Assembly (NCBI GenBank): GCA_029865605.1
Contig: JAOUGE010000005.1
Location: forward strand, 338 to 64,337
Reading direction: 5' to 3'
Origin: Candidatus Berkelbacteria bacterium
GTDB lineage: Bacteria; Patescibacteriota; UBA1384; DTJR01
Length of the DNA stretch: 64,000 nt
Shown: positions 6,444 through 34,790 of the stretch, piece by piece
Position numbering within the stretch: the stretch's first letter is position 1
Layout of the letters: every line of letters starts with the position of its first letter
The notes under the pieces: model-generated
Seen by the model: only the letters and a program-made list of their open reading frames with translations
The model's database searches: none
What the model was told of the DNA's origin: nothing
Position numbers and translations under genes: made by a program

Positions 6444-6466
6444 CTCAAACCCTAGTCTTGTTATCT

Positions 6467-6609
6467 TGGTAGCGGGGGTGGGATTTGGTCACAAGTCGGC
6501 GCGCATATTTTTCTTAAAGAGTGTGCCGCTCGCGACCCCGCCTCATCCCGCCGTGGCGGGACTCCGGCCTTCAAATCCCATCGCTCCCAATTCTCGGCTT
6601 ACGCCGATC
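6467..6609 (-). repeat. tRNA-3'-flank structured element, copy A (variant without the AGCA loop)
   Basis: Minus strand reads: after the tRNA-fMet CCA, hairpin TCGGC-GTAA-GCCGA; antisense TGGGAGCGA-TGGGATTTGAA; GGCCGGAG; hairpin TCCCGC-CACG-GCGGGA; GAGGCGGGGTCG; long imperfect hairpin; GTGAC. It ends in an exact 21-nt repeat of tRNA C56-CCA (6467-6487 = 6610-6630). Confidence 0.8.
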
Positions 6610-7541: not shown

Positions 7542-7663
7542 GGTTGTTTTTTGGTGAAACGGCGGATTCGAAGGCCGCAGCGAGCGAAGGCGAGCGAGGC
7601 GGGGTCGATTGCCGCGCCAGCAGGTGCGGACAAGTGACCGAATCCTGTCGTTGCCACCAGGTT
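7542..7663 (+). repeat. tRNA-3'-flank structured element, copy B
   Basis: TGGTG-AAACGGC-GGATTCGAA is antisense of the CCA end and T-loop. This is followed by GGCCGCA, hairpin GCGAGC-GAAG-GCGAGC, GAGGCGGGGTCG, hairpin CCGCGCC-AGCA-GGTGCGG and GTGAC. It ends in a 25-nt exact repeat (7639-7663 = 7521-7545). Confidence 0.85.
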
Positions 7664-23141: not shown

Positions 23142-23215
23142 TGGAGGCATCGCCGGGATTTGCACCCGGGTAAACGGTTTTGCAGACCGTTGCCTGACTA
23201 CTCGGCCACGATGCC
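23142..23215 (-). tRNA. tRNA-Cys (GCA)
   Basis: Minus strand reads GGCATCG TG GCCGAGTAGTCAGGC A ACGGT CTGCAAA ACCGT TTAC CCGGG TGCAAAT CCCGG CGATGCC T CCA. Confidence 0.85.
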
Positions 23216-23244: not shown

Positions 23245-23317
23245 GCGGTTTTGTCCTGCGGAGCAGGATCTAGCTTTGCTACGACAGACCGTTGTGTAAC
23301 CACTCCACCACCAGGCC
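23245..23317 (-). pseudogene. tRNA-Cys-like 5' half with a 31-nt insert in the anticodon loop; no T-arm or 3' acceptor strand
   Basis: Minus strand reads GGCCTGG TG GTGGAGTGGTTACAC A ACGGT CTG[31 nt]CAAA ACCGC. It shares CAACGGTCTG and CAAAACCG with the adjacent tRNA-Cys. Confidence 0.55.
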
Positions 23318-23900: not shown

Positions 23901-24039
23901 ACGAGATGGCCTTTAGGCCATTTTTCGTTGGAGCACCCTGCCGAGAATTGAAGGCCGGACCCCGCCACGGCGGGGGAGGCGGGGTCGCGAAATTTACCAG
24001 CAGGTAAATATTTGTGACCAATTCCGCTCACCCGCTCCA
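23901..24039 (+). repeat. tRNA-3'-flank structured element, copy C
   Basis: CGTTGGAGC is antisense of ...GCTCCAACG. It is followed by a linker, then GAATTGAA (antisense of the T-loop), GGCCGGA, hairpin CCCCGC-CACG-GCGGGG, GAGGCGGGGTCG, hairpin AAATTTACC-AGCA-GGTAAATATTT and GTGAC. It ends in a 21-nt exact repeat (24019-24039 = 23880-23900). Confidence 0.85.
23906..23925 (+). terminator. Terminator-like hairpin between tRNA-Gly and the antisense arm of element C
   Basis: ATGGCC-TTTA-GGCCAT followed by TTTTT. Confidence 0.6.
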
Positions 24040-24045
24040 GCCAGA

Positions 24046-25675: not shown

Positions 25676-27019
25676 ATGGAAATACCACTGCGCGGCATCA
25701 GTCGCGTCAAACCTACATCGCTTATCTACATCTTAAAAAACTGGAAGAATTGCCTTAATTTTTTGGAGAAAGCGGTCATAATTCTTTTGGCTCTCTTTGT
25801 CGTTTTGACTTCCTGGCGCTGGGTTTTGGCGGCGGGAGAGTTTAAGGGGATTGTGCCGCGTCGCGGAGGTAGTTTTATTGAAGGGGTCGCAGGATTAAAT
25901 GTTGACGGTTTTGACCCAGGGCGTTTGACCAAGTCAGCCTTGGTAAAAATCGACCCAAGCGGTCAAGTAATGGCCGACGTTGCCCAGAGTTGGGAAGTAT
26001 CTGCCGATAAGCTCACTTACAAGTTTGTTATTAATCCAAAATATTCCGCTTATGAGTTAGCGGACATTTTGTCTAAAAACCCGACTTATCTTGGTGGAGC
26101 TATGCCTGAGGTTTTAGATAACAGTATTTTGGCTTTCAAACTTGATGAACCGGATAATGATTTTTTGCAGAACTTTTCAAAACCTATTTTTCCCTATGGT
26201 CCCTACAAAATTGATAAAAAAACAAAAAATGAGATTCGCTTGAAACCCAACAAGGATTATCATCTCCAGTCTCCATATATCGAAAAATTTGTTATTCGGG
26301 GCTATCAGGACCAAACCGCGCTTGAGAAGGCGGCAAAAAAGAACAAGATTACTGCCGCTATAGGCCTTGAGAGCTTGCCCAAGGATTGGCAGCAAGCAAA
26401 GACTATCTTAAGCAAAAAACACATTCTTTTTGTTAACAGTTCAAAATCATATCTCAAAAAAACTGCCATCAGAGAAAAAATTCTAAACGGTGAGAAACCG
26501 GAGACCATTCAGACTCTTGATCTTCTTGAGGTTAACGGGAACGGTCAGGATCAGGAATACGAGGCGCTTAAAGAAAAGCTCAAAGCTTCCGGCATTGATT
26601 TGAAGGTGAGACAGATAGGTCTGAAGGATGCGCTTTTGCAGGAATTGCCGAAAAGAAATTACGATCTTCTCTATATCTTGGTTGATGTGGGCGTGGCTTC
26701 TGATCCGCGTCAGCTCTGGAGTTCAACTCAGAGAAGCGGCGAGGGGCAAAATTTTGCCGAACTGGCCAATGCCGATATTGATGATTTGACTTATGAGTAC
26801 GCAAAGACCGATGATCCAACCAAAAAAGCAACGATTGCAGAAAAAATTAACGAGCTTATCGCCCGCGAAAAAGTTGCTGTTGAGTATAAGAATTTGGAAT
26901 TTAACTATGCTGTTTCTCCTAAGTTGAAAGGTTTTACTATTCCACAAGCGTCTTATTGCGAGTCTGGCCGGTTTGATTTTGCTTCTTCGTGGTATTTCTA
27001 CGAGAAGAAACAGCGATAG
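25676..27019 (+). CDS. Extracellular solute-binding protein (ABC family-5-like)
   Basis: Start set at ATG 25676. N-terminal TM/signal anchor. General resemblance to peptide/nickel-binding SBPs. Confidence 0.5.
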   Translation: MEIPLRGISRVKPTSLIYILKNWKNCLNFLEKAVIILLALFVVLTSWRWVLAAGEFKGIVPRRGGSFIEGVAGLNVDGFDPGRLTKSALVKIDPSGQVMADVAQSWEVSADKLTYKFVINPKYSAYELADILSKNPTYLGGAMPEVLDNSILAFKLDEPDNDFLQNFSKPIFPYGPYKIDKKTKNEIRLKPNKDYHLQSPYIEKFVIRGYQDQTALEKAAKKNKITAAIGLESLPKDWQQAKTILSKKHILFVNSSKSYLKKTAIREKILNGEKPETIQTLDLLEVNGNGQDQEYEALKEKLKASGIDLKVRQIGLKDALLQELPKRNYDLLYILVDVGVASDPRQLWSSTQRSGEGQNFAELANADIDDLTYEYAKTDDPTKKATIAEKINELIAREKVAVEYKNLEFNYAVSPKLKGFTIPQASYCESGRFDFASSWYFYEKKQR

Positions 27020-27072
27020 CCATAGGGCCTCGACAATCTGTTCTATATCTAGTAAAATTTTGCTAAAACAAA

Positions 27073-27319
27073 GGGCAAGTGGTGAAATGGTATACACGCT
27101 AGCTTCAGGAGCTAGTGACCGCAAGGCCGTGGCTTCGCGAGGGTGGAACTCGCGAAAATACCTTGTATTTGTGCCGAAGTGGTGGAATGGTAGACACGCA
27201 GCGTTCAGAGCGCTGTGAGCGCAAGCTCGTGAGAGTTCAAATCTCTCCTTCGGCACCATCTATAATTTCGAATCCGCAACATTAGTTTTTCGTTCCACCC
27301 GAAAAACGCTTGCCCACCA
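27073..27319 (+). pseudogene. Split outer tRNA-Leu(CAG) interrupted by a nested intact tRNA-Leu(CAG)
   Basis: The 5' part (27073-27132) has acceptor GGGCAAG, a D-arm, anticodon arm CTAGC-TTCAGGA-GCTAG and a variable arm. A T-loop remnant TTCGAATCCGCA lies at 27267-27278. A perfect 3' acceptor CTTGCCC-A-CCA lies at 27309-27319. Hairpins at 27134-27156 and 27285-27307 have complementary loops. Confidence 0.6.
27173..27258 (+). tRNA. tRNA-Leu (CAG), class II
   Basis: GCCGAAG/CTTCGGC acceptor stem, anticodon arm CAGCG-TTCAGAG-CGCTG, long variable arm, T-arm GAGAG-TTCAAAT-CTCTC, encoded CCA. Confidence 0.85.
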
Positions 27320-27341
27320 GAATTAAACTTTTAACTGATTT

Positions 27342-28178
27342 ATGGATCGAATTCCCTTTACCGTTACAATGCGCAAGGACCTTTTAAAAAGGGTCGATTC
27401 TTTAGTTGATGGCACGCAAATCAGAAATCGTTCCCACGCTCTTGAATCAATTGTTTCGAGCCATTTCAGGCCGAAGATTAAAAAAGCTCTTATCTTAGCC
27501 GGCGGCGAAGGGATTAAGATAAAGCCATTCACCTATGAGCTCCCCAAGACAATGCTGCCAGTTAAGGGACGGCCGATTTTTGAATACATCCTCGACCTGC
27601 TTCAGAAACAGGAGGTAAAAGAAATTTATGTAGCCATCGGCCATTTGGGCGGGAAAATCAAGGGGCAGTTTGGCGACGGGGCAAAGTACTCTGTGGATAT
27701 TACCTATCTTGAAGAAAAGGGTAGTCTCGGCACCGGCGGTGCCTTAAAGGCCGCTCTTCCCAAGATGGGCGACGACCCTTTCTTGATGATTTGGGGCGAT
27801 GAGTTGATTGATATTGATCTTGGGGACATGATTGATTTTCATATGACGCAAAAGCCGGTTATGACAATTGCCTTGACTTCTGTTTCTGACCCGACGGGCT
27901 ATGGGGCGGTCAAGCTAAGACGGGATATGGTTGTTGAACATATTGAGAAACCGGCAAAAACCAAGGATGTATCTCATCTTGTCAGTGCCGGCGTTCATGT
28001 TGTTGATCCGAGAATTGCCAGTTTTTTGCCTCGAAAGAAAACTTTTATGCTGGAAAGCGACATTATGTCTCAGCTGACTAAAAAAGGCCAGATCCGAGGT
28101 TATCTTTTTGAAGGACAGTGGTTTGATGTAGGAACTCCCGAAATTTACCAACGGGCAATAAGAGAGTGGAGAGGGTAA
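27342..28178 (+). CDS. Sugar-phosphate nucleotidyltransferase with an N-terminal ribbon-helix-helix-like domain
   Basis: N-terminus IPFTVTMRKDLLKRVDSLV...RSHALESIV looks CopG/NikR-like. It is followed by ALILAGGEGIKIKPFTYELPKTMLPV, an NTP-transferase G-rich loop. Confidence 0.65.
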   Translation: MDRIPFTVTMRKDLLKRVDSLVDGTQIRNRSHALESIVSSHFRPKIKKALILAGGEGIKIKPFTYELPKTMLPVKGRPIFEYILDLLQKQEVKEIYVAIGHLGGKIKGQFGDGAKYSVDITYLEEKGSLGTGGALKAALPKMGDDPFLMIWGDELIDIDLGDMIDFHMTQKPVMTIALTSVSDPTGYGAVKLRRDMVVEHIEKPAKTKDVSHLVSAGVHVVDPRIASFLPRKKTFMLESDIMSQLTKKGQIRGYLFEGQWFDVGTPEIYQRAIREWRG

Positions 28179-28282
28179 ATTCTGTATCTTGTATTTTGTA
28201 TCAGGTATCTAGTATTGAACGGTGAATACATGATACATGCTACTTGATACATGATACTTTTTCTTGTACAATCTAACCTGAT

Positions 28283-28368
28283 GCCGAGGTGGTGGAATTG
28301 GTATACACGATAGCTTGAGGAGCTATGCTCGCAAGAGCGTGCAGGTTCGAGTCCTGTCCTCGGCACCA
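28283..28368 (+). tRNA. tRNA-Leu (GAG), class II
   Basis: GCCGAGG/CCTCGGC acceptor stem, anticodon loop CTTGAGGAG, variable arm, T-arm GCAGG-TTCGAGT-CCTGT, encoded CCA. Confidence 0.9.
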
Positions 28369-28523
28369 AGCAGAACTGCCCTTGTGGCAGTTTTTTGCTT
28401 GGTGCCCCGTGGACTCGAAGGCCGGACCTCGCCACGGCGGGGGTTCGAGGGGTGGCACCTGAGAAGGGTCGCGAGGCCCGCCAGCAGGCGGGAACTTGTG
28501 ACCGAGTCCTGTCCTCGGCACCA
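28369..28523 (+). repeat. tRNA-3'-flank structured element, copy D
   Basis: TGCTTGGTGCC-CCGT-GGACTCGAA is antisense of the CCA end and T-loop. It is followed by GGCCGGA, hairpin CCTCGC-CACG-GCGGGG, an extra segment TTCGAGGGGTGGCACC, GAGAAGGGTCG, hairpin CCCGCC-AGCA-GGCGGG and GTGAC. It ends in a 21-nt exact repeat (28503-28523 = 28348-28368). Confidence 0.85.
28375..28396 (+). terminator. Terminator-like hairpin between tRNA-Leu(GAG) and the antisense arm of element D
   Basis: ACTGCC-CTTG-TGGCAGT followed by TTTTTT. Confidence 0.65.
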
Positions 28524-28530
28524 CAAAGAT

Positions 28531-29106: not shown

Positions 29107-29240
29107 GGCGGAATTGCGAAGCAATTATTTGACTGGTGCGGCGAACCGAGAATCGAAGGCCGGAGCGCGACGGCGCGAGGCGGGGTCGAGCGCAAAATCA
29201 GCAGATTTTGACGGGTGACCGATTCTGTCCCCCGGCACCA
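29107..29240 (+). repeat. tRNA-3'-flank structured element, copy E
   Basis: Hairpin AATTGC-GAA-GCAATT, then CTGGTGC-GGCGAACCG-AGAATCGAA (antisense), GGCCGGA, hairpin GCGC-GACG-GCGC, GAGGCGGGGTCG, hairpin CAAAATC-AGCA-GATTTTG and GTGAC. It ends in a 21-nt exact repeat (29220-29240 = 29086-29106). Confidence 0.85.
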
Positions 29241-29443
29241 TCGCGTATGTCCTCATCTGCCAGAAAAGGTAGATGTGGAGACGCGATTTGACGGGGGCGG
29301 CAGGTCGATAACCTGAGAACCTGCCGACAAGAATCGAAACGCGCAGGCTCGACGGAGCCGAGCGGGGGTCGCGAGGCCCGCCAGCAGGCGGGAACTTGTG
29401 ACCGATTTCCTGCCTGCCGGCAGGCAGGTGTCCCTCTGCACCA
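29241..29443 (+). repeat. tRNA-3'-flank structured element, copy F (tandem, diverged, with a palindrome insert)
   Basis: Second unit directly after copy E: AGAATCGAA, hairpin GGCTC-GACG-GAGCC and GAGCGGGGGTCG. Hairpin 2 is identical to that of copy D. After GTGAC comes a Phe-like 3' end, GATT[CCTGCCTGCCGGCAGGCAGG palindrome]TGTCCCTCTGCACCA. Confidence 0.75.
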
Positions 29444-34663: not shown

Positions 34664-34790
34664 GGTTGTTTTTTGGTGAACAGGGGGGATTCGAAAGCCG
34701 GACCAGCCCAGGGCTGGGAGACGGGGTCGCACAAAAATTCAGCAGAATTTTATGAGTGACCGAATCCCACCTCGCCCACCAGGTTGTTTT
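34664..34790 (+). repeat. tRNA-3'-flank structured element, copy G
   Basis: TGGTG-AACAGGG-GGGATTCGAA (antisense), then AGCCGGA, hairpin CCAGCC-CAG-GGCTGG, GAGACGGGGTCG, hairpin AAAATTC-AGCA-GAATTTT and GTGAC. It ends in a 30-nt exact repeat (34761-34790 = 34643-34672). Confidence 0.85.

Follow-up and report, generated by a model that had tools for sequence, protein, structure and literature searches.

Does a tRNA gene that lies in two pieces around a second, intact tRNA gene of the same specificity encode a two-piece tRNA, or is it what remains of a gene that has been replaced? The question is raised by a locus in a stretch of 64,000 nucleotides (nt) from Candidatus Berkelbacteria (contig JAOUGE010000005.1 of assembly GCA_029865605.1, positions 338 to 64,337; hereafter the window, whose own numbering is used throughout), in which an intact tRNA-Leu(CAG) gene is enclosed by the 5′ and 3′ pieces of a second tRNA-Leu(CAG). 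The present analysis suggests, with a probability that we put at roughly 0.7, that the locus is the relic of a tRNA gene replacement, and that the outer pieces are leftovers and not the parts of a two-piece tRNA. The source organism belongs to the Candidate Phyla Radiation (CPR), and the gene just 3′ of the locus is 100% identical to an NDP-sugar synthase annotated as coming from Candidatus Berkelbacteria.

A reading of this DNA made from its letters alone (the sequence-only reading) had described six parts, and all six, including the 7/7 acceptor match and the complementary 7-nt loops, are where it had placed them on the plus strand. The locus opens with a sigma-70-like promoter (TCGACA, a 17-nt spacer, TAAAAT; 27030-27058), the sole promoter-like site in 26950-27400, which probably drives the whole locus; the sequence around it can be aligned with what precedes tRNA-Leu(CAG) in four related loci (L079, L012, L077, and L005, the L-numbers here and below denoting collected loci). 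The outer 5′ piece (27073-27131), which we consider a relic of the older tRNA-Leu(CAG), comprises acceptor strand GGGCAAG, D-arm, anticodon arm (CAG), and variable arm. Hairpin a (TTCGCGAG-GGTGGAA-CTCGCGAA; 27134-27156) marks the left edge of the inserted DNA and is followed by a 16-nt spacer (AATACCTTGTATTTGT; 27157-27172), the terminal 10-14 nt of which are common to locus L001, and by the intact inner tRNA-Leu(CAG) (27173-27258), which is called by ARAGORN, scores 55.2 bits against the Rfam tRNA model, and is presumably functional. The T-loop and 3′ strand of the T-stem of the outer gene follow as TTCGAATCCGCA (27267-27278), present in the L001 group as TTCGAATCCGCG. Next comes a 30-nt insertion (27279-27308) holding hairpin b (27285-27307), which reads on the minus strand GTTTTTCG-GGTGGAA-CGAAAAAC, then TAAT, and last the acceptor 3′ strand, discriminator, and CCA of the outer gene (CTTGCCC-A-CCA; 27309-27319), 7/7 complementary to 27073-27079. 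The DNA inserted at the T-arm is only ~130 nt long and is taken up by one hairpin and one tRNA. Rfam at gathering score reports nine tRNAs and nothing else in the whole window, and an E-value scan of 26950-27450 (E up to 10) gave no match to an intron, ribozyme, or tmRNA.

What the outer pieces once were can be seen in relatives that carry the same type of gene uninterrupted, a comparison that the sequence-only reading had proposed. In L228 (6518-6604, minus strand) an uninterrupted tRNA-Leu(CAG) is ~90% identical to the outer 5′ piece (over 59 nt, 5 substitutions and 1 indel) and runs on into a normal T-arm and the 3′ end CATGCCCACCA; the acceptor pair of the L228 gene, GGGCATG/CATGCCC, differs from the outer GGGCAAG/CTTGCCC by a compensatory change. 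In L231 (7877-7963) an intact tRNA-Leu(CAG) whose acceptor is exactly GGGCAAG...CTTGCCCACCA occupies the orthologous site, 3′ of the same SBP_bac_5 gene, and the relic CTTGCCC-A-CCA is identical to the 3′ end of this gene. Because intact genes of the outer type exist in relatives, and because the 5′ piece lies right behind the conserved promoter, we take the outer gene to be the old resident of the site and the inner tRNA to be the newcomer.

The outer pieces, moreover, carry structural defects. With 24.9 bits against Rfam tRNA, the 5′ piece falls short of the gathering score of 29; it has one A.C mismatch in its variable stem and stops just past the variable arm (..CCGTG); homology with L228 places its end at 27131, one position short of the end first described, and leaves it with no proper 5′ strand of the T-stem. 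The outer tRNA had been described as broken at the T-stem/T-loop boundary. A break at the T-arm is indeed present, and the 30-nt insertion forms a second interruption, separating TTCGAATCCGCA from CTTGCCC and placing the 3′ strands of T-stem and acceptor 30 nt apart. These two strands abut each other in 23/23 viral and 26/26 complete genomic tRNA-Leu genes of the outer acceptor type. The genomic set derives from a scan of GTDB genomes with the outer 5′ sequence, which returned 28 tRNA-Leu genes from other phyla, the present genome not being among the matches; of these, one carries a variant of the 3′ strand, another runs off the end of its contig, and the 26 complete genes are all intact. Deletion in silico of both 27134-27266 and 27279-27308, each of which is required, yields a tRNA-Leu(CAG) that ARAGORN accepts, and this repaired molecule borrows CGTGG of the variable arm as its T-stem.

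Syntenic loci were gathered via the neighboring NTP-transferase gene. Three of the more distant ones (L005, L077, and L012; 63-74% protein identity) have a plain single tRNA-Leu(CAG) between the SBP_bac_5 and NTP-transferase genes. The closest relative is the L001 group, which is 85% identical and comprises six contig records (L001-L004, L007, and L008, of which L001 and L008 are one and the same contig) from at least five samples. Its inner tRNA is identical to that of the window at 86/86 positions, and its 3′ relic (TTTCGAATCCGCGGCATTAG-GTTTTTCG-TTCCGCC-CGAAAAAC-G-CTTGCCCACCA) at 51/54. In contrast, the outer 5′ piece shows no conservation in this group: the outer acceptor, D and anticodon arms are missing, and a trace of the variable arm, AGCAAGGCCG, is the sole remnant of the 5′ piece. 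Hairpin a is likewise absent from the syntenic locus, and loop b, which reads TTCCGCC in L001, has no partner GGCGGAA anywhere in the L001 locus. A two-piece tRNA, which the sequence-only reading had listed as one possibility, and with it a kissing pair of loops, is not supported: the nearest relative keeps one piece and has lost the other. The same reading had stated that independent decay of the outer halves without maintained loop complementarity, together with absence of RNA from them, would reduce the locus to a disrupted pseudogene; the sequence half of that statement describes what the nearest relative shows.

Hairpins a and b have perfect 8-bp stems and 7-nt loops, GGTGGAA and TTCCACC, that are exact reverse complements. 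The window holds ~17 distinct perfect hairpins of at least 8 bp (26 raw entries, compared with ~6 entries in mononucleotide shuffles), and a and b are the only ones among them to share a loop. Since the chance of a 7/7 loop match between two given hairpins is ~6e-5 and no other loop-sharing pair occurs in the window, the match is not due to chance. It is explained, in our analysis, by the membership of both hairpins in one family. The hairpins share a 9-nt apex, GGGTGGAAC / GTTCCACCC, in inverted orientation, and both fit a lineage-specific family defined by a stem of 8-9 bp that varies in sequence, a closing G-C pair, and the 7-nt loop GGYGGAW, of which eight instances were found in roughly 290 kb of (redundant) Berkelbacteria-related DNA scanned. 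Two members are near-identical to hairpin a (L077 2516-2538, TTTGCGAG-GGTGGAA-CTCGCAAA; L011 3711-3731, TTTCGAG-GGTGGAA-CTCGAAA), two have stems like that of hairpin b (L228 3810-3832, GTTTTGCG-GGTGGAA-CGCAAAAC; L228 10973-10997, GGTTTTCG-GGTGGAA-CGAAAACC), and one contains a mismatch (L228 19240-19266). When the eight members are aligned, with hairpin b reverse-complemented, compensatory changes are seen in 7/9 stem pairs, the closing G-C pair does not vary, and the loop is constant at most positions (GGTGGAA in 6/8 members, GGCGGAA and GGTGGAT in the others). Paired cells make up 91.7% of the alignment, as against 65% in shuffles, and 0/500 shuffles reach the observed value. The stems, once called unrelated, therefore belong to a single family in which sequence changes and pairing persists. 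We found no description in the literature of this GGTGGAA hairpin family, nor of the tRNA-flank element treated below.

The complementarity of loops a and b is thus accounted for by two copies of one motif on opposite strands, and not by selection for pairing. The 7-mer GGTGGAA does occur, as had been reported, in the D-arms of three Leu tRNAs (positions 9-15), and it has 16 occurrences in the window where ~8 are expected. The loop is not specific to the Leu D-arm, however, since GGTGGAA-loop hairpins are also found at tRNA-Gly, tRNA-Val, and glmS loci, and in the collected loci the members other than a and b occur singly, without a partner in opposite orientation. Accordingly, neither a kissing pair nor a decoy of the Leu D-arm is a general property of the motif, and the sense, antisense, and decoy logic that had been extended to the D-arm is not supported. 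A role of GGGTGGAAC as a DNA-uptake sequence was also considered and set aside, the 7-mer being enriched only about twofold.

The layout of a stump, a GGTGGAA hairpin, a short spacer, and an intact gene recurs at two other loci. In L077 (2385-2560) an older tRNA-Leu(GAG) survives as a 5′ stump that breaks off in the anticodon loop; the hairpin comes next and, 18 nt on, a different, intact tRNA-Leu(GAG). In L228 (10945-11035) the stump is a 30-nt piece of the glmS 5′ end that has a ribosome-binding site of its own; the hairpin comes after it, and the true glmS start lies 36 nt further. Stump and gene differ at five positions, and because all five are synonymous third positions, the stump derives from an allele that was once functional. 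Stumps without a hairpin occur 5′ of intact tRNAs in L079 and at the tRNA-Cys of the window. The Leu(CAG) locus fits this series and is special only in that a 3′ scar of the same old gene survives. The readings of the locus as a decaying pseudogene and as an insertion site, which the sequence-only reading had listed beside the two-piece tRNA, are supported by this recurrence, by the intact genes of the outer type, and by the position of the 5′ piece behind the promoter.

Two of these stumps show further detail. The tRNA-Leu(GAG) stump of L077 bears two mutually complementary insertions that flank its D-loop. The tRNA-Cys stump of the window (23285-23317, minus strand), 33 nt long, comes from the 5′ end of another tRNA-Cys allele and stops in the anticodon loop; the intact tRNA-Cys (23142-23215, minus strand) follows 69 nt downstream, and the spacer contains a small hairpin and CTTGATA.

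Collectively, these data support a model in which an older tRNA-Leu(CAG) with the acceptor pair GGGCAAG/CTTGCCC would have stood right after the conserved promoter. At or just before the T-arm of this gene, a short segment led by a GGTGGAA hairpin and carrying a complete second tRNA-Leu(CAG) would have been inserted, and a second hairpin module, of 30 nt and inverted, would have come to separate the 3′ strands of the old T-stem and the old acceptor. The working gene would now be the inner tRNA. The outer pieces would probably be co-transcribed with it from the single promoter, as a 5′ leader of roughly 100 nt and a 3′ trailer, and would be removed by ordinary RNase P cleavage and 3′-end processing, with no reassembly into a tRNA. 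The order of events, the co-transcription from a single promoter, and the entry of hairpin-bearing DNA are the parts of this model that we infer and do not observe directly. Such DNA might have come as a small mobile module, by recombination at the hairpin, or by homology-facilitated illegitimate recombination after DNA uptake. Partial tRNA genes that arise from insertions are a known and common by-product in prokaryotes (PMC9897764).

A second family of sequences at the tRNA genes of this lineage bears on how the 3′ relic is read. Seven structured elements of ~115-135 nt lie in the 3′ flanks of 6/9 tRNA genes of the window, two of them after tRNA-Phe (6466-6598, minus strand; 7543-7660, 23924-24040, 28391-28524, 29129-29241, 29310-29423, and 34667-34782, plus strand). 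Each consists of a T-rich spacer, a segment imperfectly antisense to the acceptor 3′ strand, T-stem 3′ strand, and T-loop of the tRNA, a conserved core, and a copy of a tRNA 3′ end that spans T-loop to CCA. The core contains TCGAAGGCCGGA (also given as GAAGGCCGGA), a hairpin, GAGGCGGGGTCG, a hairpin with a CAGCAG loop, and GTGACC. Ten flank elements adopt one consensus fold with compensatory changes in 19/30 pairs and one invariant G.U pair, and a covariance model built from these ten (R1) finds further members in relatives. No Rfam family matches the element, either in the whole-window search or in E-value scans of two flank elements. A scan of IMG/VR with the core gave 120 matches; none of those inspected has the full signature, and chance similarity in GC-rich phages would seem to account for them. 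The possibility that the 3′ relic is a degenerate flank element was tried with R1 and set aside, since the model has no match in 27259-27319 and a weak tRNA-like match on the inner tRNA (12.8 bits, E = 0.11).

The flank element shows signs of turnover of its own. Behind tRNA-Leu(CAG), a flank unit of 113 nt is absent in the window (27258/27259), single in L001 (2814-2927), and present in at least two tandem copies in L002 (1-241), with each boundary of the unit exactly at the 20-nt repeat AAATCTCTCCTTCGGCACCA. The GGTGGAA hairpin can occur inside the element as an optional module (L011 and L228). The 3′-end copy, in addition, may match an allele other than that of the adjacent tRNA, as in L228 18237-18374 for Leu(TAA) and L011 3643-3798 for Val; in the former the tRNA ends ..CCCACCCTGGGCACCA and its 3′-end copy reads GAGTCTCTCCTTGCCCACCA. 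Such mismatches suggest that whole tRNA genes have been replaced. The same 20-nt palindrome, CCTGCCTGCCGGCAGGCAGG, is present in the tRNA 3′-end copies of two flank elements, one in the window (29409-29428, Phe) and one in L231 (8091-8110, Leu(CAG)), and looks like a second small hairpin insertion family.

Several other differences distinguish the tRNA cluster among relatives. The tRNA-Leu(GAG) genes of the window (28283-28368) and L001 (4477-4563) are identical in acceptor and T-arm and differ in the D, anticodon, and variable arms, and the tRNA alleles of these lineages appear to be mosaics. A TGTATC / ATGATAC repeat module ending TAACCTGA lies 5′ of tRNA-Leu(GAG) in the window (28180-28282) and 5′ of tRNA-Leu(CAG) in L001 (2604-2700), there in place of the outer 5′ piece. 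In L001, the NTP-transferase gene and tRNA-Leu(GAG) are also separated by an insertion of 640 nt. Open reading frames are inserted beside the tRNA cluster in some relatives (L001 3837-4476, L078 2417-3076, and L077 3417-3680), and two of these have Pfam matches to homing endonucleases, a faint one to LAGLIDADG_3 in L078 and one to GIY-YIG in L077. A large serine recombinase adjoins tRNA-Leu(TAA) in L232; no repeat of the tRNA 3′ end was found within 20 kb, so no link was made.

The replacement model has to contend with several observations. In the 3′ relic, the window and L001 agree at 94% of positions, although identity is no more than 52-58% at third codon positions in the genes on either side, and the two tRNA-Leu(GAG) genes differ at roughly 15-20 positions (counted by eye). 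The relic thus seems too well conserved for neutral junk, and this conservation would call for either constraint or a recent exchange of a block made up of the inner tRNA and the relic. The 5′ piece and hairpin a are known from one contig only, and no transposase or integrase has been tied to the hairpin. Finally, the 3′ relic might be the 3′-end copy of an old flank element and not the end of the old gene; L231 and 29409-29428 offer examples of such copies with a hairpin inserted.

A broader proposal, in which the GGTGGAA hairpin and the ~115-nt flank element form one previously undescribed system that repeatedly replaces tRNA genes, and the 5′ end of at least one protein gene, with foreign alleles, is offered here tentatively, as a possibility that we would not ourselves bet on. 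If it were true, the 5′ stumps and the 3′-end copies would be remnants of its action, and the nested tRNA-Leu locus would be the sole place that keeps both scars of one event. The conserved block of inner tRNA, 3′ relic, and hairpin b would then be a moving or functional unit and not junk.

The rival that fares best is one in which 27134-27307 is a single mobile cassette, with inverted GGTGGAA hairpins as ends resembling terminal inverted repeats and the inner tRNA as cargo, that jumped into the old gene. The inverted orientation and shared apex of the two hairpins are as such a cassette would have them, at three loci the inserted DNA has the hairpin as its left edge, and the near-identity of the block of inner tRNA and relic in two otherwise diverged lineages is what a moving unit would show. 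The segment so defined would, however, include TTCGAATCCGCA, which is part of the target gene and not cargo; hairpin b occurs in L001 without hairpin a; and the right-hand inverted copy is missing in the L077 and L228 cases. IMG/VR scans with the 3′ relic and with the inner tRNA, carried out to look for a phage or mobile-element origin of the block, gave no matches, and no transposase was identified. We therefore regard a single cassette as unlikely.

Less probable still is a functional RNA, in which a leader-trailer helix (GGGCAAGUG / CGCUUGCCC) and a loop-loop kiss would bracket the inner pre-tRNA and guide or regulate its processing, or, at the extreme, yield a two-piece tRNA-Leu. The acceptor strands, complementary at 7/7 positions, can be extended to a helix of 9 bp, and the loops match at 7/7; the minimum-free-energy fold pairs both ends with z = -4.1, but this fold includes a real tRNA. 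The 94% conservation of the 3′ piece would also suit a function. Even so, L001 has the same inner tRNA without the 5′ strand, hairpin a, or GGCGGAA, an intact isoacceptor inside the locus makes a second one unneeded, and the other members of the hairpin family stand alone. On the plus strand the loop of hairpin b resembles that of a T-arm (TTCCACC, with a closing G-C pair), and it was considered as the T-arm of the outer tRNA; ARAGORN (default settings) refuses the full 8-bp stem and accepts a construct trimmed to 5 bp, and the A at the equivalent of T-loop position 58 is G in L001. No pathway for joining split tRNAs is known in bacteria. An assembly artefact, in which a metagenome assembler joined two strain variants of the tRNA-Leu(CAG) locus, is hardly credible: the 5′ piece and hairpin a do come from a single metagenome-assembled contig, and alleles of tRNA-Leu(CAG) are highly variable among relatives, but the junctions hold unique sequence (hairpin a and the spacer) that no assembler would invent, the 3′ relic and hairpin b are reproduced in contigs from at least five samples, and the layout of stump, hairpin, and gene is also found in unrelated contigs.

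Set against known systems, the replacement relic most resembles the partial tRNA genes described by van der Gulik et al. 2023 (PMC9897764) and the classical attL/attR duplications of tRNA 3′ ends, with which it has in common an interrupted gene, old fragments beside a working copy, a breakpoint near the T-loop, and a working function supplied by the incoming DNA. It differs from them in that the insert is ~130 nt long, has no integrase or other gene, and brings an entire tRNA, not just a 3′ end that matches; the 5′ and the 3′ fragments of the old gene both survive, and the junction is marked by a small hairpin and not by an att repeat. As for an integrase-borne island, the direct repeat is limited to TTCG (27134-27137 and 27268-27271), and the insert contains no integrase or recombinase gene.

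Split tRNA genes, as in Nanoarchaeum equitans and Caldivirga maquilingensis, and permuted tRNA genes (Chan et al. 2011, PMC3218864) likewise consist of acceptor-matched pieces with extra complementary sequence on each. In these archaeal and algal genes the complementary flanks form a bulge-helix-bulge, which is cut by the splicing endonuclease before ligation, and the split copy is the sole and a conserved one (PMC3218864). The present locus differs from them in being bacterial, in having an intact isoacceptor between the pieces, in missing a strand of the T-stem, and in having lost one piece in its closest relative. Joining the outer halves does not give a complete cloverleaf: the 5′ strand of the T-stem is absent, and 27279-27308 would also need to be removed. 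Nor are the halves a needed and conserved source, with an intact tRNA-Leu(CAG) inside them and a group of relatives that has no 5′ piece. The extra complementarity is confined to a 7-nt loop-loop match of closed hairpins, and no helix-forming flank was seen at the break, although no formal search for a bulge-helix-bulge was run.

Two further comparisons concern the insert and its hairpins. Interrupted tRNA genes are known from the same superphylum as group I introns in Patescibacteria, and from cyanobacterial tRNA-Leu(UAA). The patescibacterial introns interrupt the anticodon loop (positions 33-37) and contain the catalytic core of group I (PMC13011429); here, the insertion is at the T-arm, is mostly a tRNA gene, and has no group I match in Rfam (E up to 10). 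The hairpins themselves recall repetitive extragenic palindromes (REP and REPIN sequences) and palindromes like those of miniature inverted-repeat transposable elements, which are also short intergenic hairpin modules found in either orientation and of which inverted copies give complementary loops. In REPs it is the sequence that is conserved, whereas the GGTGGAA family conserves loop and closing pair while the stem varies with compensatory changes, at low copy number. The GGTGGAA modules, moreover, are situated at gene-stump junctions and inside the structured element of tRNA flanks.

As a split tRNA, the locus would be the first for bacteria, and the evidence does not support that. Taken as the relic of a replacement, it provides a clean, datable case of tRNA allele replacement in a CPR bacterium, and two uncharacterized families are indicated by its analysis: a conserved-loop hairpin at stump/gene junctions and a covarying element behind most tRNA genes. 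Both are more interesting leads than the nested locus itself and deserve a study of their own. Stumps such as those described here can be mistaken for genes, which is of relevance to tRNA annotation. Furthermore, these findings suggest that tRNA genes in the present lineage turn over by a specific route, which bears on gene exchange in reduced, probably DNA-scavenging bacteria.

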